The notes under the pieces: generated by a model
The model's database searches: none
The model's input: the letters and a program-made list of their open reading frames with translations, nothing else
Told to the model about the DNA's origin: nothing
Shown here: positions 101-49,737 of the stretch, piece after piece
How positions within the stretch are numbered: the stretch's first letter is position 1
Layout: each line of letters starts with the position of its first letter
Sequence record: NC_047820.1
Strand: one strand, 5' to 3'
DNA from: Escherichia phage vB_EcoS_ESCO41
Length of the DNA stretch: 50,800 nt
Translations under genes and position numbers: made by a program

Positions 101-207
101 TGATGGGGGGAATGATGGAGTGATGGACTACCATACAAGTTGATTTTGATTCTGGCTGAGCCATTTTTTAGCCGACGCGTAATTGTGTGTAACTCATGTA
201 TAGGGCC

Positions 208-344
208 TGTATACTGTGTAACGATTTGGCATAAGCATACGCGGCATACGCATTTTTACGCATTAGTTACAATAAAATATCTATATATAACAACCCTTTA
301 TCTATATTATTATTATTATATATATCTATGTATACTGTGTAACG
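208..344. repeat. AT-rich element flanked by exact 16-bp direct repeat TGTATACTGTGTAACG (208-223, 329-344), with tandem GCATACGC (235-242, 244-251) and a (TTA)n/TATA tract; paralogous to 31036-31165
   Basis: Direct reading; about 90 bp aligns at roughly 85% with 31065-31160 (judged by eye). Confidence 0.55.
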
Positions 345-545
345 GATATCTAGGGGAGGCATCTGTCAAATTTGATAATATTGCCAACTAATATATAGGG
401 GAGCCATTCCGCCAGGATAATAGGGCCATATGCAGACAATCACCATTCAGTATGCGTTACATGATATACCGCCTACTTACATCAGGCGTAGCGAGGCCTC
501 CAGGGCAGAAATGTTTCCCGGCCTGTTTTTTACATGAGATTACTG

Positions 546-2267: not shown

Positions 2268-2630
2268 ATGAAAGTTCGTTTACTTAACCCGTCAATCTAT
2301 GCAGGCATTAGCTACACCAAGCTCCACGAAAAGGAGACGAACCCGCGAGATCCTGGTTCATATCCGATCGTCGTAGAGGGTTTCTTTGATGGCACTGAAT
2401 TTAATAATACTTCAATCAAGGTTGGTGGTGACGAGCTTGATCGAGTATTCAAAAGCTATTTCAGTAGCGGAAAGCCAATGAACTCATGTTACGGTAGCGA
2501 AGCAGTTCTTGGTTGGTGGAACGATCCAGGCGAGCCTAAATCATGGGAACCTGTCGGGCCGTTCGATTACTGGAATAAGCTCAAGGCATCACGCGAAATT
2601 GGCGAGACGGTAGGGAAGGGTTACTTATGA
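2268..2630 (+). CDS. hypothetical protein (120 aa)
   Basis: ORF with RBS-like AGAGGA upstream. Confidence 0.55.
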   Translation: MKVRLLNPSIYAGISYTKLHEKETNPRDPGSYPIVVEGFFDGTEFNNTSIKVGGDELDRVFKSYFSSGKPMNSCYGSEAVLGWWNDPGEPKSWEPVGPFDYWNKLKASREIGETVGKGYL

Positions 2631-2806
2631 TTACTTTATGCATTCTGCTTTACATCCTGGGCGCAATTCCGGTTTATGCAATTGCAAAAGACGTTAGCAA
2701 TAGCGATAACAAATGGTACGACATGGTGATCGTTGCCGCTATCTGGCCCATTGCCATTGCTTTCGGGGTGGTTAATGGCATCTACCAAAAGTTGAAGGAG
2801 AAATAA
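2627..2806 (+). CDS. small hydrophobic protein (59 aa, below ORF-track cutoff)
   Basis: ATGA overlap with upstream stop; translation MITLCILLYILGAIPVYAIAK.. is membrane-like. Confidence 0.4.
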   Translation: MITLCILLYILGAIPVYAIAKDVSNSDNKWYDMVIVAAIWPIAIAFGVVNGIYQKLKEK

Positions 2807-5274: not shown

Positions 5275-5317
5275 TAGCACGAATTGCTAAACCCGCTCCG
5301 GCGGGTTTTGTTATAGT
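5275..5317 (+). promoter_or_regulatory. palindrome-promoter cassette: TAGCACGAATTGCTA + 22 bp + TATAGT
   Basis: Palindrome 5275-5289 just after stop TAA; -10-like 5312-5317 preceded by TGT. Confidence 0.6.
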
Positions 5318-5346
5318 TAGTTCACACCAAACGACAGGAAAGCAAA

Positions 5347-5505
5347 ATGATTACTATCAACCTGTCAGACAAGCAAGCCGTCATTCTTAAGCAACTCCTG
5401 GCAACTCAGACTATGCAGTGCACAGACGATGAGTTCTCGGAGATGGTTAAAGAGGTTCGCACTCAGATCAACAATCAACAATTCGACGAAAACGAAGGGG
5501 AATAA
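5347..5505 (+). CDS. small hypothetical protein (52 aa, below ORF-track cutoff)
   Basis: ATG 5347 preceded by leader CACACCAAACGACAGGAAAG; ends TAA 5503-5505. Confidence 0.35.
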   Translation: MITINLSDKQAVILKQLLATQTMQCTDDEFSEMVKEVRTQINNQQFDENEGE

Positions 5506-6189: not shown

Positions 6190-6512
6190 TTTACATTCAC
6201 ACTTATGGCATTGGCAAATTTGGCAAAGAGATTCGCCGGACCGTTCACGAAACGAAGGAATTAGCAGAAGCGGCACAGAAAGTTCTCGGCGGTGAGTTCA
6301 AGGCTTACCGCGAAGCGGATGACTCGGTTGAATGCTGGCAGGTTGAGCGCATGCGTAACGTTCTGGAAAGTGAGGTGTCAGATCTTATCGATAACATGAC
6401 GAGTCACGGCCCTGGCGGACCATGGGAAGAGCCTGGCTCACCGGAATGGGATTGTGCCAAGGTTGACACAATGAACAAGATCAGCGAAATCATTGATGGG
6501 GTGTACGAATAA
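6186..6512 (+). CDS. hypothetical protein (108 aa)
   Basis: ATGA overlap with upstream gene. Confidence 0.5.
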   Translation: MIYIHTYGIGKFGKEIRRTVHETKELAEAAQKVLGGEFKAYREADDSVECWQVERMRNVLESEVSDLIDNMTSHGPGGPWEEPGSPEWDCAKVDTMNKISEIIDGVYE

Positions 6513-6685
6513 TGCTGACAATAATGATGGCTAATCTTGACCTATCATCTGATTTTAGCATTATCGCCTTCATCTTACCGATACTGCTACTACTGCCTTT
6601 CGCCTGTTACGTGGTAATAAAGGACCTGGCAGAATGGAAACGAATTGACAAAAAAATTAAACAAGCAACCTACAGGAATAAATAA
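6512..6685 (+). CDS. small membrane protein (57 aa, below ORF-track cutoff)
   Basis: TAATG overlap; hydrophobic core FSIIAFILPILLLLPFACYVV. Confidence 0.35.
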   Translation: MLTIMMANLDLSSDFSIIAFILPILLLLPFACYVVIKDLAEWKRIDKKIKQATYRNK

Positions 6686-6925: not shown

Positions 6926-7112
6926 GATCAAGAAGGGTGACGTGATCAAGTGTATCGGCGCGCGCGGTTATGAGTTCTTTAATGGCTGCGAGTACACAGT
7001 GGAAAAAGTTGATTCCCAGGGATACGTTTATGTCTACAGCGACGAGGGGAACAAGGTCGCGATCGACTACCCTGTTTGCCAGACGTATGGAACTTTTAAA
7101 AAAGTTGATTGA
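6897..7112 (+). CDS. hypothetical protein; likelier start ATG 6918
   Basis: ORF-track frame; the ATG at 6918 has a GGGGAAAG RBS-like sequence. Confidence 0.4.
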   Translation: MKMGKVSMSKIKKGDVIKCIGARGYEFFNGCEYTVEKVDSQGYVYVYSDEGNKVAIDYPVCQTYGTFKKVD

Positions 7113-7137
7113 CAACCATCTCACTGACTGGTATCTT
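7109..7137 (+). promoter_or_regulatory. candidate sigma70 promoter TTGACA-N17-TATCTT upstream of tRNA genes
   Basis: -35 7109-7114, -10 7132-7137; weak -10. Confidence 0.3.
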
Positions 7138-7288
7138 TAATCTCGTAAACAGAAGAGGCCACCAAGTGGCAACGAGCGGTTCGTAATCCGCAAATTGAAA
7201 TAGCGCATCGCCAAAAGCAAAGTGTAAGTCGCAATACAATCGAGGCATTGTGAAAGCCTGCCGGATTCCGTAACCGGCCTTCATTTAA

Positions 7289-7366
7289 GCTCCGCTAGCT
7301 CAATTGGAAAGAAGCAACGACCTTCTAAGTCGTAGGTTACTGGTTCGAACCCAGTGCGGAGCGCCA
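7289..7366 (+). tRNA. tRNA-Arg (anticodon UCU)
   Basis: Acceptor GCTCCGC/GCGGAGC, anticodon stem ACGAC/GTCGT with loop CTTCTAA, T-arm ACTGG-TTCGAAC-CCAGT, encoded CCA; D-arm irregular. Confidence 0.75.
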
Positions 7367-7370
7367 ATTA

Positions 7371-7469
7371 CTCGGCGTTGCTAATATTGGCCTTAGGGTG
7401 GAGCTTATACCTCCATAAAGCAATCGACAGATAATCGATGTAATGCAGGTTCGATTCCTGCCGCCGAGA
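7371..7469 (+). tRNA. atypical tRNA-like gene (about 99 nt): anticodon-type loop CTTATAC (UAU) plus an extra 29-nt region with a second hairpin
   Basis: Acceptor CTCGGCG/CGCCGAG, T-arm GCAGG-TTCGATT-CCTGC, hairpins TGGAG-CTTATAC-CTCCA and ATCGA-CAGATAA-TCGAT; not a canonical class I or II fold. Confidence 0.4.
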
Positions 7470-7487
7470 CTAATAACGAGGTTTGAT

Positions 7488-7673
7488 ATGTTTGAGGTCA
7501 AGCTAACTATTTTGCTAATGGGGCGCACATGCGCATCTTGTAAGCAAAACTTTGAAGCAAAGGTTGAGGCCAGTAGCGCCGAAGAGGCCGTTTCAAAGGC
7601 AAAGAAAATGAGCGGAGTCGATACAACGACTCATAAATTTTTAGTTAATTATGTAAGGGGTATTTCATGCTGA
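7488..7673 (+). CDS. hypothetical protein (62 aa)
   Basis: ATG 7488 with RBS AACGAGG; the longer ORF-track start 7443 would overlap the tRNA-like gene. Confidence 0.4.
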   Translation: MFEVKLTILLMGRTCASCKQNFEAKVEASSAEEAVSKAKKMSGVDTTTHKFLVNYVRGISC

Positions 7674-10186: not shown

Positions 10187-10735
10187 GTGAGATTCAGCGA
10201 TATTTTTACATACAAAAGCGGAGAGGTTTTCTGGAATGGAAGGCCAGAAAGTGATTTTAGTAAAATGAGTGCATATCACGCGTTTAATAGGATGGTTGGC
10301 AATACTGCTGGATACCTAGATAAATCAAACGGATACTGGTATGTGTGGATTACAATTGGCGGTATTGAAAAGAAAATACCACGATCACATATTGTGTGGT
10401 GTATTCACAATAATGCAGCCATCGTTCCAAAAGGGTTTGTTATTGATCATATAAACCACGTAAGAGATGATGATAGGATAGAAAACCTTGAACTTAAAAG
10501 CTATAGAGGAAACAACAGAAACCTTTCAATATCAAAAAGGAATAAAAGCGGTTGCGTAGGTGTTACATGGTATTCTCGCGATGAAATGTGGATGGCTTGC
10601 ATAATGGGTGATGACGGAAAGAACAAAAATCTTGGCAGGTATAATGACTGGTTTGATGCGGTTTGCGCAAGGAAGAGCGCGGAGCATGAGATTGGGTATC
10701 ACACAAACCACGGCAAGGATAGCGAGAATTGCTAA
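10187..10735 (+). CDS. HNH homing endonuclease (GTG start)
   Basis: IDHINHVRDDDRIENLEL matches the HNH/AP2-type motif; paralogous to 12823 and 40179 genes. Confidence 0.75.
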   Translation: MRFSDIFTYKSGEVFWNGRPESDFSKMSAYHAFNRMVGNTAGYLDKSNGYWYVWITIGGIEKKIPRSHIVWCIHNNAAIVPKGFVIDHINHVRDDDRIENLELKSYRGNNRNLSISKRNKSGCVGVTWYSRDEMWMACIMGDDGKNKNLGRYNDWFDAVCARKSAEHEIGYHTNHGKDSENC

Positions 10736-12822: not shown

Positions 12823-13305
12823 ATGAATTTCAATGATTATTTTTATCATGTAGGAAAAGATCTCATCTGGAAAAATCCGACATCAGCAAGGGTTAAGGCT
12901 GGCGATATTGCTGGATGGAAGGATGAGGATGGATATATTTACGTTAGGATTATGGGTAGGCTAACTCCAGCCCATAGGGTAATATGGGAGATGCACCATG
13001 GCAAAATACCTGAAGGTATGGAGATTGATCATATAAACCACATCACGGATGATAACAGGATCGAAAACTTAAGGCTCGTAACCAGGCAAGAGAACTGCAA
13101 AAACGTCTCGATGAGTAAGTCAAACAAAAGCGGATTTGTCGGGGTTAGTTGGTGTAAGAGAACGAGCAAATGGTTTGCTTCAATAAGGGTGGACAAAAAG
13201 GAGCGGTTCCTTGGTAGATACGATATAAAAGATGACGCTGTGTACGCAAGAAAGGATGCAGAGACGAAATATAATTTTCACAAAAATCACGGGAGTAAAA
13301 AATGA
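12823..13305 (+). CDS. HNH homing endonuclease
   Basis: IDHINHITDDNRIENLRL motif; inserted between head genes. Confidence 0.75.
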   Translation: MNFNDYFYHVGKDLIWKNPTSARVKAGDIAGWKDEDGYIYVRIMGRLTPAHRVIWEMHHGKIPEGMEIDHINHITDDNRIENLRLVTRQENCKNVSMSKSNKSGFVGVSWCKRTSKWFASIRVDKKERFLGRYDIKDDAVYARKDAETKYNFHKNHGSKK

Positions 13306-16139: not shown

Positions 16140-16168
16140 TTGACTCATAGTCAAAAATGAATTAAATT
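16140..16168 (+). promoter_or_regulatory. candidate sigma70 promoter TTGACT-N17-TAAATT
   Basis: Direct reading; weak -10. Confidence 0.3.
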
Positions 16169-16210
16169 AGAACCTCAAAAGCTAATGCAACCAAGTAAGG
16201 AATATTAAAA

Positions 16211-16486
16211 ATGACTACCAAAACCGTTAAGATTAAAAATATTGGCGCTTGCCTGCTTCGCATCAACAAGACAAACGTATCCCCTGATGAATCAATTGAA
16301 GTTGATGAGTCAGAAATCAAGTCTCCTGCATTTAAGCACCTATTTATCTCTGGCGTCGTCGAGTTCGAAGATGAACCAAAGAAAACTCGTGAGATTATTG
16401 AAGGGTTCAAGTCAACCATGAAGACTAAGAAAAAGAAAGAGCCTAAGAGCATCGAAGAGCTGGAAACTGGCGCAGACATCAAATAA
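16211..16486 (+). CDS. hypothetical Lys-rich protein (91 aa)
   Basis: ORF between two terminators with RBS. Confidence 0.45.
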   Translation: MTTKTVKIKNIGACLLRINKTNVSPDESIEVDESEIKSPAFKHLFISGVVEFEDEPKKTREIIEGFKSTMKTKKKKEPKSIEELETGADIK

Positions 16487-16493
16487 ACCATAT

Positions 16494-16519
16494 GGGGCGC
16501 TAATGCGTCCCTTTTTTTT
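16494..16519 (+). terminator. rho-independent terminator
   Basis: GGGGCGC-taat-GCGTCCC followed by T8. Confidence 0.65.
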
Positions 16520-16537
16520 ATCAAGAGGAAATCAACC

Positions 16538-16951
16538 ATGAATGAAGATCAAATTAAGACGTTGGGGTTTATGCGACAGCTAGCTCCGGCACTCAAAAAA
16601 GTGGAAGATGAAGTTTTTACTGCATGGATAGCTCTGTCTGAGTCATTCGTATGCAAGAGCAAATTCGGCAATGATTACTACAAGGCTCTAGCCCTGTACA
16701 CAATGCACTTGATGTTTTTGGATGGTGCGATGAAGGGGGAAAATGAAAGCCTGGAAAACTACTCACGGCGAGTAACGTCATTCTCCCTGAGCGGTGAATT
16801 TTCCACTGGCTACGGCTCTGTAACGCAGAATACTGACGGTCGTCAGATTACTCAAACACCATGGGGTAAAATGTTCGACGTTCTCAACAAGAAGAAAGGC
16901 GGTGGCTTCGGCCTCATCTCTGGCATTCGGGCGCGGGGTTGTGTGCGATGA
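16538..16951 (+). CDS. putative head-tail connector/adaptor protein
   Basis: Position between capsid and tail genes. Confidence 0.35.
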
Positions 16952-22885: not shown

Positions 22886-23395
22886 ATGTTTAGGGTTTGT
22901 AAAAAATGCGGAGTTGAGAAACCTTTCGAGTTATTCTGCAAGCACAAGCAGTGCAAGAATGGGATAACTCATGAGTGCAAGGAGTGCAGTGAGGCCAGAA
23001 GGGTTCCATTAGACCCGAAAGAGAAGGCGGATTACGATAAGAGAAGGTACGAAAGAAGTAGGGACTCTCACCTTAAGATGATGAGTGAAAATAACGAGTT
23101 ATACAAAATGAGGCATTACATAGCAAGTGATAAAAAGAAAGGTTTTGTAAGTGATATAAACATTGAATATTGTATTATAAAAATGAATGAACCATGTCAC
23201 TACTGCGGTCACATTGACACACCAGCTAACGGCCTTGATAGAATAGACAACTCAATAGGTCACGTTAAATCAAACCTAGTTCCTTGCTGTCGATTATGCA
23301 ACATGACAAGGGGTGACAGGTGGAGCCATGAAGACTTTATCAAATACATATCGCCTTCAATTAAGCTTTTCAGGAGAGAAGAAAATGTCAGCTAA
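22886..23395 (+). CDS. HNH endonuclease with Cys-rich N-terminal zinc-finger-like region
   Basis: CKKCGVEK..CKEC and HYCGH..LDRIDN..NLVPCCRLCN motifs; inserted between M-like and L-like tail genes. Confidence 0.6.
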   Translation: MFRVCKKCGVEKPFELFCKHKQCKNGITHECKECSEARRVPLDPKEKADYDKRRYERSRDSHLKMMSENNELYKMRHYIASDKKKGFVSDINIEYCIIKMNEPCHYCGHIDTPANGLDRIDNSIGHVKSNLVPCCRLCNMTRGDRWSHEDFIKYISPSIKLFRREENVS

Positions 23396-30969: not shown

Positions 30970-31035
30970 TTTATCGCCAATTCCACCATAAATCACGGTT
31001 ACACGTAACCGATGTAACTCGATGTATACAATCTC

Positions 31036-31165
31036 TTCCGCGAAAAATGATATACGCGCTGTTACGCTGATTTACGCAATGGTTACATTAAAATATCTAT
31101 ATATATCAACCTTTTACTCTTATTATTATTATTATATATATTACTGTGTATATCATGTAACTACT
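31036..31165. repeat. AT-rich element paralogous to 252-344: ATACGC-type repeats, (TTA)n tract, TACTGTGTA motif
   Basis: Aligned by eye to the left-end element; lies between divergent transcription units. Confidence 0.55.
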
Positions 31166-31366
31166 TCTATAGAGTGTTCCGATTATAAATTTCTAATATG
31201 TACATTTATACAGTATTTAATCATACGTATACCAATGCACCATCCGATGAAAATGATATACACGATATACGCGACGTTTACATTGAGCTATAGCTGGTCC
31301 GGACAGTCATTTTATGTAACTACTAACTATGTATACACCAAGTTACAGATATATACGCGTAACCTA

Positions 31367-31394
31367 TTGACTAATGCAACCAATAGCGTATAGT
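31367..31394 (+). promoter_or_regulatory. sigma70-type promoter TTGACT-N16-TATAGT for the recombination operon
   Basis: -35 31367-31372, -10 31389-31394, then leader CATCAACAACGAACGAGG and ATG 31428. Confidence 0.55.
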
Positions 31395-33239: not shown

Positions 33240-33683
33240 ATGCCACACGTAATCACTGGCCAGATCCGTAAATCACCATTCACTAAAGAAGGAAGCAACA
33301 ACAACGGACGTTGGAAAATGTATGCCGTCGAACTTTCTGAGCGCATGAAGATTCGAAATCAGAATGGCGAGGATGAGACGGTTTATAGCAACTACCGCGC
33401 TACATTCTTCGCAAAAGAAAACGTTATGCAGTGGTATGATGAAGCGTTCCAGGAGGGAAAGGTTGTTTCAATTTCTGCCGACACTCTTCATTTATCGTCT
33501 CGACAGGGTAATGATGGAACCGTTTACGTCACCGCTGAAATGATCCGGCCTCAGCTGCAATTCAGCCAGCGCGAACAAGCGCAGAAGCAGAGTCAAGGAC
33601 AACAACAGCATCAGCAGAATCAGAGACATCAGCAGCAGCAGCCACAACAACAAAAACAATTCGAAGACGATATACCGTTCTAA
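33240..33683 (+). CDS. ssb: single-stranded DNA-binding protein
   Basis: 147 aa; Gln/Gly-rich linker and canonical acidic tail ..QQKQFEDDIPF. Confidence 0.8.
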   Translation: MPHVITGQIRKSPFTKEGSNNNGRWKMYAVELSERMKIRNQNGEDETVYSNYRATFFAKENVMQWYDEAFQEGKVVSISADTLHLSSRQGNDGTVYVTAEMIRPQLQFSQREQAQKQSQGQQQHQQNQRHQQQQPQQQKQFEDDIPF

Positions 33684-38060: not shown

Positions 38061-39242
38061 ATGTTGCCTATCGAGAAGTTGGTTGCGAACTTCGATAAAG
38101 AAAGAATCAAACAAATTCAGAGAGATTATCAGTTTGGCGAGATAACCCCTTACGAATTCCAGTGCGTTACATTTGATGCAATTGGAAAGGCTATTGGGAA
38201 GTATGAGGCCCCATTTATAGCAGACCTTTCCGTTTCTGCGGGTAAGACAATTATTCTTGCCATGATTGGTAAGCGCATGGAGCAATTAGGGTTGCCTTAT
38301 ATGGTTCTTTCTCGCCAGTCAGAGATAATCAGCCAGAACTCAGAAGAGCTCCGTAATTTCGGTATCCGTAACAGCGTATATTGCGCTGGCCTTAACGTTA
38401 AATCAGTTTACTACCCAACCATAGTGGCTAGTGAGGGTACGGCAGCCAATGGCTTATTTAAGGGGCTTGGTGACTATGTTCCTGCGGTTATCGCTATAGA
38501 TGAATGTCACATGCTTGATACCATAGATATTGTGGAAGCCGAAGAGAATGAAGAAACATTTGAGCAAATGAGCACAAAGAAAGGCGAGATGGTTTTTAAG
38601 GATGGCGTTAATACTGGATTGCTTGGTACTGGTCGTGCGCAGTACACGCTAATAATCACTGAGATGAAGCGTCGCTGCCGTGAAAAATACGGGCGGGAGC
38701 TTCGTATATTCGGCCTTACTGGTAGCCCTTATCGAAACAATGACCATATCGTCGTTAGCAATCCAAACATCCGTGGGTTCTGGCGAAAAACTGTGATTCA
38801 GGTTCCAACAAATTACCTTGTTGATTTGGGATTCGTGGTTCCTACTGTTTATGGCGAGGTTGGCGATTTAGGTTATGACCTTAGCGAGTTTGAGCCTGAC
38901 GGAAGCGATGGTGTGAAAGATTTCAGCAAGAAAGAAATGGATGCGATGGCTGCAAAGATTCACGACAATCAGTCAATGACTCAAAAAATAATGGGGTTTG
39001 TTGTAAAAATACTAGAGACTCGTAACGCCGCGCTGGTTACATGCGCTGGCAAGTTGCACTGCAGTGAAGCGGCTGCCGCACTGCCTGATGGATACCCTTA
39101 CGCAATCATTACTGATTCTACTGGCGAGAAAAAACGACGTGAGATTCTATCTGATTGCCAGACAGGTAAGTACAAAATAATATTCCAAATTGGGTGTCTA
39201 ACTACGGGCGTTTCGGTCCCGCCCTTACGCAATCATTACTGA
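38061..39242 (+). CDS. SF2 helicase, N-terminal part (reading frame broken by 127-bp tandem duplication)
   Basis: Walker A SVSAGKTI, DEAD-box-like AIDECHM; ORF stops 21 nt into the second repeat copy. Confidence 0.65.
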   Translation: MLPIEKLVANFDKERIKQIQRDYQFGEITPYEFQCVTFDAIGKAIGKYEAPFIADLSVSAGKTIILAMIGKRMEQLGLPYMVLSRQSEIISQNSEELRNFGIRNSVYCAGLNVKSVYYPTIVASEGTAANGLFKGLGDYVPAVIAIDECHMLDTIDIVEAEENEETFEQMSTKKGEMVFKDGVNTGLLGTGRAQYTLIITEMKRRCREKYGRELRIFGLTGSPYRNNDHIVVSNPNIRGFWRKTVIQVPTNYLVDLGFVVPTVYGEVGDLGYDLSEFEPDGSDGVKDFSKKEMDAMAAKIHDNQSMTQKIMGFVVKILETRNAALVTCAGKLHCSEAAAALPDGYPYAIITDSTGEKKRREILSDCQTGKYKIIFQIGCLTTGVSVPPLRNHY

Positions 39243-42455: not shown

Positions 42456-42689
42456 ATGAAAAAGCAACCTTTTAGCACTTACAACCAGCAGGCATACCGT
42501 AAAAATATTTTACTGCCGCACCTGCTTCGCATGGCTAATGAGTGCGCAAGTGAAGCGCTGTCGCTTGGTAAGGACGGCGGTCTTGACGAAGTGATTGCCG
42601 TTACTTATCTCAAGGGCGCTTATGGTCACTTGCCGATCGCAGACTATCAAGCTATGTCAGGGAGCTTTGACATTTATGGTAACTGTTGA
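42456..42689 (+). CDS. hypothetical protein (77 aa)
   Basis: ORF after cassette/leader/RBS. Confidence 0.45.
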   Translation: MKKQPFSTYNQQAYRKNILLPHLLRMANECASEALSLGKDGGLDEVIAVTYLKGAYGHLPIADYQAMSGSFDIYGNC

Positions 42690-42921
42690 GGTAGGTCGTC
42701 AGGCTGTTTGGGATCACTGCAAGGAGGCGGGCATAAGTGATGATATTGCTCTTATAGCAAAGTATTTCGATATTAAAGATATATGCGTCATTTTCAACGG
42801 AAAGATGACGTATATACACGAAAGGCCACGTAAGCTGATCAGGGTTCCGGCAAATTCGGTGAAGATTGACTACAGGGCCTGCATTCAAGCAACGAAAGAC
42901 GCAGCGAGAAGATATAAATGA
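42676..42921 (+). CDS. hypothetical protein (81 aa); start chosen at ATG 42676
   Basis: ATG overlaps upstream stop by 14 nt; ORF-track start 42595 would overlap by 95 nt. Confidence 0.4.
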   Translation: MVTVEVGRQAVWDHCKEAGISDDIALIAKYFDIKDICVIFNGKMTYIHERPRKLIRVPANSVKIDYRACIQATKDAARRYK

Positions 42922-44453: not shown

Positions 44454-44627
44454 ATGGTTAAATTATTTTGCGTTAAGAACACATCTAAAACCCTTCCTTT
44501 CACTGTTAACAATCCGTACAGCGCCGAGTATCAAGGTGACGGTAACTACAAGATTTACGGCGACGATATGACGTGGATTTTTGCGCCGATTGATGGTGCG
44601 CTGGTTGAATTTATTATCGCTGACTAG
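44454..44627 (+). CDS. small hypothetical protein (57 aa, below ORF-track cutoff)
   Basis: ATG 44454 preceded by CACAGAGGATTCAATC RBS; ends TAG 44625-44627. Confidence 0.35.
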   Translation: MVKLFCVKNTSKTLPFTVNNPYSAEYQGDGNYKIYGDDMTWIFAPIDGALVEFIIAD

Positions 44628-44654
44628 CGCAATAAAAACATAACGTTAAGCACG

Positions 44655-44680
44655 GGGAGCCTTTAGGCTCCCTTTTTTTT
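44655..44680 (+). terminator. rho-independent terminator before the lysis cassette
   Basis: GGGAGCC-ttta-GGCTCCC followed by T8. Confidence 0.7.
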
Positions 44681-44759
44681 CGCTTCTTTTTCATACCATG
44701 CTAATGTATTATGTTTTTTACTAACTGAGATATTGACAAATACATAAAAGGTGGATCAC

Positions 44760-48634: not shown

Positions 48635-48677
48635 AATATACAGGAAAAGCCCCGAAGGGCTTTAGCAATTAGTGCTA
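48635..48677 (-). promoter_or_regulatory. palindrome-promoter cassette (minus): TAGCACTAATTGCTA + 22 bp + TATATT
   Basis: Plus 48663-48677 palindrome overlaps stop of methyltransferase-like gene; hairpin AGCCC-ttcg-GGGCT. Confidence 0.6.
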
Positions 48678-49343
48678 TTTGTTACTTTCATATAGTGCGC
48701 GAGCAAACCCCTCAGGTGTTAATGATCGGAGTACTTTTGTCTTTGCAGACTTTCCGCCGCAGTATTTCCAGGCCCAGAAGAACCCAATGCTCTCGACTGG
48801 CTTTTTAATCGGTTCAACAAATCCATTCCCACACCAAATACATGTCTTTTTATTATAGGCGTTACGAGGGGGCATCCTGGGGTGATAAACTTCATCATGT
48901 TCAACGTAACCGCCATAATCGCAAGGGTGAAAATAGAAGTCAGGCTTACGCCACAGGCTTGAAAGCTTGCCTACCGGATTCTCGACCATCCAGGGTGCCT
49001 GGAAGTGATTTCCGACTTCCTCGACGAGCTTCGCATTAGCCAAGGCATACGCCAGTTCATCCTCACTGCGCTCATGCTGTGATCCAGACTGAGAGAACAG
49101 CGTGCAATCAGGGAATCCGATAACCATCTGCGCCGGAGGCAGGCCGAGTAATTCACACTTGGTGATGAAATCCTTGTCAATCCACATATTGACGTAGTGG
49201 ATGTTCTCATGCTTCATCTTGATATGGTATTCGCCATGATTACCAGAGTCCGCGTTGAAACAGTAGACGGTGTGACCATCTTCCGCCCATGGCAGGCCAG
49301 CGATGCCGGATCCGTCAAAAAGACAATAAATTACCTTTTTCAT
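48675..49343 (-). CDS. compact C5-cytosine methyltransferase-like protein (putative)
   Basis: Motif I-like LFDGSGIAG, motif IV-like GFPDCTLFSQSG (Pro-Cys), motif VI-like ENPVG; only 222 aa, no obvious target-recognition region. Confidence 0.4.
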   Translation of the reverse strand: MKKVIYCLFDGSGIAGLPWAEDGHTVYCFNADSGNHGEYHIKMKHENIHYVNMWIDKDFITKCELLGLPPAQMVIGFPDCTLFSQSGSQHERSEDELAYALANAKLVEEVGNHFQAPWMVENPVGKLSSLWRKPDFYFHPCDYGGYVEHDEVYHPRMPPRNAYNKKTCIWCGNGFVEPIKKPVESIGFFWAWKYCGGKSAKTKVLRSLTPEGFARALYESNK

Positions 49344-49498
49344 TTCTTCTTTTCCTTCTCAATTGCTTTCTGTGTGATTTCGTAACTGCTTTGCAAGTCT
49401 TCAACCTGAGCGCTGGTGCTCCATGGATACCATCCTTGACCTGAGAGCTTCGCGATCGTGTCGTTGTCGTAGTAGTTCAAATCGGATGGCTTGAGCAT
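49340..49498 (-). CDS. small hypothetical protein (52 aa, below ORF-track cutoff)
   Basis: RBS GAGGTGAAATA before ATG; TAATG overlap upstream and ATGA overlap downstream. Confidence 0.3.
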   Translation of the reverse strand: MLKPSDLNYYDNDTIAKLSGQGWYPWSTSAQVEDLQSSYEITQKAIEKEKKK

Positions 49499-49737
49499 TA
49501 TTTCACCTCATCAAACGTTGCGATGCCAGGGATGAACATTCCGACCTTCCATCCTGCGATAGCAATCCAGCCAGAATCGTGCTTGTGCGGTCGCTCAGCG
49601 CCATTAATTACCCACTCGTTCGGGATTGTCTTACCTTTAATGATTAGCGGCTCAGCGTCGTATACAGAGCCTTTTACGAACGGTGTCAAAACTTTCTTGT
49701 CGGTGCTGGTGATGCAATTTGTGCATATTACTTTCAT
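49498..49737 (-). CDS. hypothetical protein (79 aa)
   Basis: ORF with RBS, in coupled gene chain. Confidence 0.45.
   Translation of the reverse strand: MKVICTNCITSTDKKVLTPFVKGSVYDAEPLIIKGKTIPNEWVINGAERPHKHDSGWIAIAGWKVGMFIPGIATFDEVK

Follow-up and report, generated by a model that had tools for sequence, protein, structure and literature searches.

Five open reading frames (ORFs) of 52 to 59 amino acids (aa) in the genome of Escherichia phage vB_EcoS_ESCO41 (NC_047820.1; 50,800 nucleotides (nt), the whole stretch being referred to here as the window) are very probably, at a probability that we put at roughly 0.92, ordinary small protein-coding genes of a T1-like phage (Drexlerviridae, Nouzillyvirus-like) that have been hidden by a 60-aa cutoff. 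They are missing from the default ORF list solely through this cutoff. An initial annotation of the window had singled them out as genes that look real, and the positions, strands and sizes that it gave agree with our own reading of the sequence:

49340..49498, minus strand: ORF1, the headline ORF, 52 aa, ATG start
2627..2806, plus strand: ORF2, 59 aa, ATG start
5347..5505, plus strand: ORF3, 52 aa, ATG start
6512..6685, plus strand: ORF4, 57 aa, ATG start
44454..44627, plus strand: ORF5, 57 aa, ATG start

We regard these ORFs as real protein genes because they keep the same start and a single open frame in related phages, because substitutions within them are biased toward third codon positions, because their codon usage ranks highest among ORFs of their length, and because homologues are already annotated.

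Evidence for five small genes

Judged from its sequence, the window is the genome of a T1-like siphophage of the Drexlerviridae, related closely to CJ19, TH30 and XT34, which are phages of the genus Nouzillyvirus. Megablast of two parts of the window against a phage collection returned CJ19, TH30, 50EP, XT34, ETEP102, TH21 and TH27 as the closest DNA matches (82-94% identity), which are T1-like Escherichia coli siphophages and for the most part classified in the Drexlerviridae, genus Nouzillyvirus. The gene layout is typical of T1-like phages: after rightward small early genes come those for terminase, head and tail and those for recombination and replication, then a cassette of holin, signal-anchor-release (SAR) endolysin and u-spanin, and finally a leftward block that closes the window on the right. 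Comparisons drew on eight full genomes (CJ19, TH30, TH21, TH27, Msk, 12469II, T145P1 and A110b) and on the partial loci of 50EP, ETEP102 and XT34.

The length of the five ORFs is by itself compatible with chance, since the six frames of the window contain 83 ORFs of 50-59 aa. When these 83 are ranked by codon-usage log-likelihood, with a score for which 33 long, well-supported genes and, as their contrast, the off-frames of these genes served as training sets, the five ORFs occupy ranks 1-5. They score 0.17-0.48 bits per codon, compared with an average of -0.17 for the other 78 and an average of 0.29 for supported genes of 60-130 aa, within whose range they fall. By our own count, a set of five ORFs named in advance would take these ranks by chance once in 29,034,396 cases. 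Moreover, in a gene map built from ORFs of at least 60 aa that show codon-periodic substitutions relative to the eight related genomes, the gaps contain no supported ORF of 25 aa or more other than these five. This map replaced an earlier one, compiled greedily on length only, which was dropped because it had picked several antisense shadow ORFs.

Conservation in related phages, which the initial annotation had named as a check on its claim, is found for all five ORFs, each with the same start, the sole open frame, purifying selection and an annotation in GenBank. Extending every tblastn match revealed intact homologues in 1-10 related genomes per ORF. Their start is the homologous ATG throughout, except that three Braunvirinae phages begin ORF5 one codon further upstream. 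The proposed frame is free of stop codons in every genome compared (11/11 for ORF1, 6/6 for ORF2, 11/11 for ORF3, 2/2 for ORF4 and 9/9 for ORF5), whereas each alternative frame is open in at most one. The ratio of nonsynonymous to synonymous substitution rates (dN/dS, Nei-Gojobori, relative to the window) is 0.03-0.45 against diverged relatives, with binomial p values down to 1e-9. This range includes 0.03-0.27 for ORF3, 0.05-0.15 for ORF5 and, where it can be computed, 0.07-0.28 for ORF1, for which dS is saturated against the four most distant relatives. Pooled substitutions by codon position peak at position 3 for ORF2 to ORF5, as in 34/23/116 and 11/3/30; for ORF3, a distribution of 5/5/35 is seen.

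The initiation signals described in the initial annotation are likewise present. A purine tract resembling a Shine-Dalgarno (SD) sequence, corresponding to the ribosome-binding site that had been claimed, lies 5-8 nt 5' of every start; the SD duplex energies of the five ORFs lie between -4.3 and -7.7 kcal/mol, whereas random ATGs of the window average -3.3. Overlapping stop and start codons of the two reported kinds occur as well, TAATG at the starts of ORF1 and ORF4 and ATGA at the start of ORF2 and the stop of ORF1. All five ORFs would be translated within polycistronic operons: ORF1, ORF2 and ORF4 are predicted to start by translational coupling at these overlapping codons, and ORF3 and ORF5 from SD sites of their own.

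GenBank records of relatives (CJ19, XT34, ETEP102, 50EP and Bas11) list homologues of the five genes as hypothetical proteins. The homologues annotated in Nouzillyvirus and other Drexlerviridae genomes stand at the same positions, with 77-100% protein identity and with the same start codons and coupling to neighbors, although ORF4 lacks a counterpart in these Nouzillyvirus genomes (the set of CJ19, ETEP102 and XT34). Three of the genes belong to catalogued families, ORF1 to phrog_4548, ORF3 to phrog_16063/DUF7180 and ORF5 to phrog_4788/DUF7244. The profile matches are all highly significant, those of ORF1 and ORF5 over the full length, and phrog_4548, phrog_16063, phrog_4788 and DUF7180 are all labeled "unknown function". 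The genes are hence already known: they are present in public annotation, three of them in catalogued families, and one has been described in a paper (see the section on ORF5).

Several observations weigh against the view that all five are genes. Relative to its three nearest relatives, ORF1 carries only 3-4 substitutions, with a dN/dS of about 1 for two of them, which is uninformative, and its pooled periodicity (1/4/5) is not significant; because these nearest relatives differ too little, the support for ORF1 rests on more distant homologues. ORF2 shows the weakest selection signal of the five (dN/dS 0.28-0.45, p of about 0.01-0.1), and ORF3 has the weakest SD site, at -4.3 kcal/mol. The codon test for ORF4 rests on one independent phage genome, and the support that this ORF draws from thirteen further protein clusters is at the protein level. 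A literature search for expression data on T1-like phages found no ribosome profiling, proteomics or reporter data for this phage or its homologues, the RNA sequencing and proteomics of one candidate preprint concerning a T5-like phage.

If the five ORFs were chance open frames in non-coding spacers, the abundance of ORFs of their length and the uninformative comparison of ORF1 with its closest relatives would be readily explained. However, even relatives of as little as 46-55% identity keep start and open frame, with stops accumulating in the other five frames, and the third-position bias of substitutions, the low dN/dS, the top five places in codon usage and the matches to protein-family profiles together render this explanation highly improbable. 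We give just as little credence to the idea that these regions owe their conservation to something other than a protein (a regulatory RNA, a promoter, a terminator or a packaging signal, for instance), the open frames being a by-product. Phage intergenic regions often carry regulatory elements, and ORF3 and ORF5 do lie near terminator-like hairpins. Yet these hairpins are located outside the ORFs, the three-base periodicity follows the ORFs' own frame, a pattern that RNA or DNA signals do not produce, and protein similarity persists at about 50-60% DNA identity.

ORF1 to ORF4 and their genomic settings

ORF1 lies in the leftward block, between two larger genes:

49498..49737, minus strand: phrog_4448 gene, 79 aa (E 1e-43), directly upstream of ORF1 and putatively coupled to it in translation
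48675..49343, minus strand: gene of a Dcm-like DNA (cytosine) methyltransferase, 222 aa (phrog_757, E 4e-78), whose ATG overlaps the ORF1 stop (ATGA)

At the upstream junction, one A belongs both to the TAA of the 79-aa gene and to the ORF1 ATG; at the downstream junction, the ORF1 TGA is contained in the ATGA with which the methyltransferase gene begins. The product matches the phrog_4548 hidden Markov model over its whole length (E 4e-25, 88 bits; residues 1-52 on profile positions 1-50 of 53), whereas Pfam and NCBIfam contain no match for ORF1, ORF2 or ORF4. Searching the phage collection with tblastn identified ORF1 homologues in 114 phage records, with identity down to 46%, and a large protein database adds 10 clusters. 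The start ATG is shared by 10 relatives, and the gene is annotated as CJ19_069, ETEP102_76 and WNO25486, with a 174-nt variant listed in 50EP.

A confident AlphaFold2 model of ORF1, computed from a 17-sequence alignment, displays a two-helix hairpin with helices at residues 9-19 and 29-50 and a predicted local distance difference test (pLDDT) score of 78.6. The alignment, in which the helices are conserved and the loop varies in length, agrees with such a hairpin. A Foldseek comparison of the model with the PDB gave no significant match (best E 3.6), a two-helix hairpin being too simple to place. The product is predicted to be a 52-aa soluble cytoplasmic hairpin, which would be produced jointly with the phrog_4448 protein in the leftward operon.

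ORF1 is found downstream of a phrog_4448 homologue in all eight genomes, directly adjacent in seven and about 200 nt apart in Msk. The methyltransferase, which is 47% identical to the Dcm-like methyltransferase of Bas11, is absent beside ORF1 in TH27 and in the Braunvirinae phages; hence, ORF1 travels with the phrog_4448 gene and not with the methylase. In Bas11, homologues of two genes further upstream (bas11_0051 and bas11_0050, the latter corresponding to the 71-aa gene of the window) run directly into the Dcm gene (Bas11 38726-38737), and the pair of phrog_4448 gene and ORF1 is absent, so that the pair forms an optional two-gene module. Across subfamilies, the phrog_4448 protein retains about 84-96% identity, whereas ORF1 falls to 46-50%. 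Our best guess is that the ORF1 product, small and cytoplasmic, is a partner of the phrog_4448 protein, with translational coupling holding the two in fixed proportion.

ORF2 and ORF4 are the two ORFs that the initial annotation had described as strongly hydrophobic, and both are so, with grand average of hydropathy (GRAVY) values of 0.84 and 0.58, respectively. ORF2 has two transmembrane (TM)-like segments. Its start lies in the ATGA overlap with the gene at 2268..2630, and its stop is 2 nt before the next ATG. Thirteen records of the phage collection contain full-length homologues with 61-88% identity in tblastn, and one more gives a partial match; the gene is annotated in XT34 as WPK42175 (a 180-nt coding sequence) and in CJ19 as CJ19_051, there with a longer N terminus. 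An exhaustive search added four further small homologue clusters and defined the conserved motifs LY.LGA.PV and D....A.WP. Long matches (494-1619 aa, several stretches each) were set aside as hydrophobic low-complexity sequence. A weak match to phrog_7899 (E 0.0016, 19.6 bits) is possibly driven by composition, as may be expected for a TM protein. The ORF2 product is predicted to be a 59-aa hairpin of two TM segments in the inner membrane, belonging to a narrow family.

ORF3 starts about 72 nt after the preceding gene, a dNMP (deoxynucleoside monophosphate) kinase gene from which it is separated by a hairpin, and its stop is 2 nt from the next ATG:

5289..5308, plus strand: terminator-like hairpin between the dNMP kinase gene and ORF3; ETEP102 annotates a terminator at the equivalent site

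The protein matches Pfam DUF7180 with 45.8 bits (cutoff 27), on profile positions 1-49 of 79 only, and phrog_16063 with E 1.6e-24, covering just the N-terminal two thirds or so of either profile. It is a shortened form, 52 aa compared with 72-79 aa in the Braunvirinae homologues, which keeps the N-terminal MITINLS...TQINNQQFD of DUF7180 and lacks the C-terminal 20-25 residues of those homologues. Annotated counterparts are CJ19_046, ETEP102_15 and XT34 WPK42180 (a 159-nt coding sequence). A promoter-like site at 5321-5348 was rejected as the promoter of ORF3, as it overlaps the start codon. The product would be an acidic, soluble DUF7180 protein of 52 aa.

ORF4 has a single TM-like segment. 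Its start and the stop of the upstream gene overlap as TAATG, and its own stop abuts the next ATG. Alignment with CJ19 identifies it as an exact insertion of 174 nt: at position 33537, CJ19 has ...TACGAATAATGTTTGG..., in which the TAA that ends the upstream gene overlaps the ATG of the downstream one, and the window has the entire ORF4 between these two genes. ORF4 is also absent from TH30, TH21 and TH27. The slot between the flanking genes of 108 and 79 aa is variable, being empty in four Nouzillyvirus genomes, occupied by ORF4 between homologous neighbors in Msk, and filled with about 1.1 kilobases (kb) of other genes in three Braunvirinae phages.

Within the phage collection, homologues of ORF4 are confined to Msk/OzMSK (2 records, 77% identity), Msk being a member of the Braunvirinae, a different subfamily. 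The substitutions that separate ORF4 from its Msk homologue are distributed 11/3/30 over the codon positions (p of about 1e-9), at a synonymous distance that is saturated. The 13 clusters mentioned above are metagenomic proteins of 74-96% identity, in which the TM segment and a near-invariant basic tail, KD.AEWKRIDKKIK.AT.RNK, are kept, and on one 23.7-kb contig ORF4 is called as a gene in the same order of 108, 57 and 79 aa. Searches with phrog and Pfam profiles yielded no family match. A lipoprotein assignment based on the sequence PFAC was rejected, since the box is non-canonical and its Cys is replaced by A, D, S or V in homologues. ORF4 is predicted to encode a membrane protein of 57 aa that crosses the membrane once and ends in a basic, cytoplasmic C-terminal tail. 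Its gene would belong to a gene-sized cassette that phage lineages exchange with one another at the borders of genes, and the indel is normal phage mosaicism at such borders, involving a small accessory membrane protein.

ORF5, a standalone SH3 gene beside the lysis cassette

ORF5 matches the Pfam family DUF7244 from end to end (104 bits, cutoff 27; residues 1-57 on profile positions 1-57 of 57), and it also matches phrog_4788. Its equivalents are Rtp62, Sd1_gp3, CJ19_078 and bas11_0041, the last of which is 37% identical to ORF5, and a large protein database holds 34 clusters. AlphaFold2 confidently models the protein as a five-stranded SH3-like beta-barrel with a pLDDT of 90.9. The gene lies between a DNA-repair exonuclease gene (phrog_704) and the holin gene (phrog_2877), an order that is the same in eight relatives and in Bas11.

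The DUF7244 "standalone SH3" has been described as a common part of the lysis module in the Drexlerviridae, occurring in 188 of 522 Drexlerviridae and always near the lysis module, and has been proposed to play an auxiliary role in lysis (Eremina et al. 2026, PMC13164509). ORF5 shares with the Drexlerviridae standalone SH3 (PMC13164509; Rtp62; Sd1_gp3) the Pfam model, the SH3-like barrel and the order exonuclease-SH3-holin-endolysin-spanin. To this description we add two features, a conserved terminator between ORF5 and the holin gene and the lack of an export signal in ORF5, both of which fit cell-wall binding poorly. The terminator is located as follows:

44654..44681, plus strand: intrinsic terminator with an 8-bp GC-rich stem, a 4-nt loop and a T-run, 27 nt past the ORF5 stop and before the holin gene

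A hairpin followed by a T-run is present at the same place in 9/9 relatives, with three different stem sequences whose pairing is kept and with energies of -15 to -18.5 kcal/mol. ORF5 itself starts about 72 nt after the preceding gene; in Bas11, the start of the ORF5 homologue overlaps the stop of the upstream exonuclease gene. Because the terminator precedes the holin gene and the Bas11 homologue overlaps the exonuclease gene, ORF5 seems to be the gene that closes the upstream unit. The initial annotation had called ORF5 a cassette leader. This label holds insofar as the gene adjoins the lysis cassette, as published (PMC13164509), but it needs qualifying in view of the terminator that separates ORF5 from the holin gene and of the overlap seen in Bas11. 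ORF5 may nevertheless be co-transcribed with the lysis genes by read-through of the terminator.

No signal sequence, SAR or TM segment, or fusion to an endolysin is present in ORF5, whose highest 19-aa Kyte-Doolittle window reaches 1.31 and is C-terminal. The endolysin encoded in the window is of the exported SAR type, unlike ORF5. The ORF5 product would be a 57-aa standalone SH3-like barrel, whose gene would close the exonuclease unit immediately ahead of a cassette of pinholin, SAR endolysin and u-spanin.

Several roles can be considered for ORF5 and its companions. An auxiliary function in the lysis module, in which the SH3 domain would bind peptidoglycan or modulate the endolysin, was suggested by Eremina et al. 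(2026) and agrees with the label of cassette leader. The constant vicinity of holin, endolysin and spanin genes, both here and in the published survey of Drexlerviridae, and the SH3-like fold seen in the model speak for it; considering the terminator and the lack of an export signal, we hold it to be possible though rather doubtful. By analogy with Gp54 of the T1-like phage Bas11 (PDB: 9AXB), a small non-essential protein that is sensed by CapRelSJ46 (Zhang et al. 2024, PMC11578894), the five ORFs might instead be accessory host-interaction genes that act in superinfection exclusion, inhibit host defenses or trigger them. This seems unlikely to us, as none of the five is similar in sequence to Gp54, a Gp54 homologue is absent from the window, and the structural match of ORF5 is no better than to generic SH3 domains. 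Searching the window with Gp54 by tblastn gave no match at E<=1, and comparing the ORF5 profile with 9AXB gave none at E<=10; on these searches, ORF5 and every other protein of the window were rejected as homologues of Gp54. In addition, Gp54 is six-stranded whereas ORF5 is five-stranded, and their genomic positions differ. Gp54 thus appears to be an analogue of ORF5 and not a relative.

A broader proposal, to which we likewise attach a low probability, holds that ORF5 is not a lysis helper but a cytoplasmic partner produced with the exonuclease operon, acting for instance as a protein-protein adaptor or as a defense-interacting factor in the manner of Gp54, which is itself SH3-like. In this proposal the ORF4 cassette and the module of the phrog_4448 gene and ORF1 could similarly be mobile genes for anti-defense or exclusion that Drexlerviridae lineages swap at start/stop junctions. 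For the reading that we prefer, in which all five are ordinary small genes of a T1-like phage, we infer translation, membrane insertion, operon membership and any function from the features described above, and the products look like accessory proteins that may act on host or phage partners.

Other features of the window and implications

The comparison with related genomes also bears on other annotations in the window. Ten neighboring genes have no Pfam match at E<=0.01. An ATG ORF of 123 aa at 31022-31393 (plus strand), contained in the track of ORFs of at least 60 aa, displays no codon periodicity relative to the eight relatives (131/129/111), and CJ19 appears to annotate nothing at the equivalent gap, which carries divergent promoters. 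This ORF is probably not a gene, an error opposite to that of the missed small ORFs. At 42595-42921 (plus strand), the listed TTG ORF of 108 aa is over-extended: because the substitution periodicity switches at 42688, the real gene appears to be 42688..42921 (77 aa), with a start that overlaps the end of 42456..42689. The ORF at 16162-16539 (minus strand) is an antisense shadow that shares wobble positions with a 91-aa gene on the plus strand (16211-16486), so that ranking by length picks the wrong strand; the plus-strand gene is putatively equivalent to CJ19_029 (273 nt).

At the left end of the window, positions 1-612 contain no supported coding sequence, and a TTG ORF of 83 aa at 140..391 is conserved in relatives without codon periodicity (121/91/100); the region is likely a non-coding terminal or regulatory region. 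A tRNA-Arg gene (anticodon TCT) lies at 7289-7366 (plus strand) within the otherwise poorly coding stretch 6926-7666, and the ETEP102 record has an annotated tRNA-Arg in the corresponding position. The packaging, head and tail module is interrupted by three genes of HNH or endonuclease-VII-like proteins, of the homing endonuclease type, at 10187-10735, 12823-13305 and 22886-23395 (all plus strand). The last of these has zero blastn coverage in the eight compared genomes and hence appears to be a lineage-specific insertion.

Taken for what it says about a T1-like phage, the presence of these five genes is nothing unexpected. The point of most interest that remains is the functional place of the DUF7244 SH3 protein in the lysis cassette. 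For annotation quality, the consequence is that a 60-aa cutoff loses five real genes, about 6% of the approximately 80 genes in this genome. A correct inventory of small genes is useful in this family, as anti-defense factors and defense triggers, such as Gp54 of Bas11, are now being found among phage proteins of this kind.

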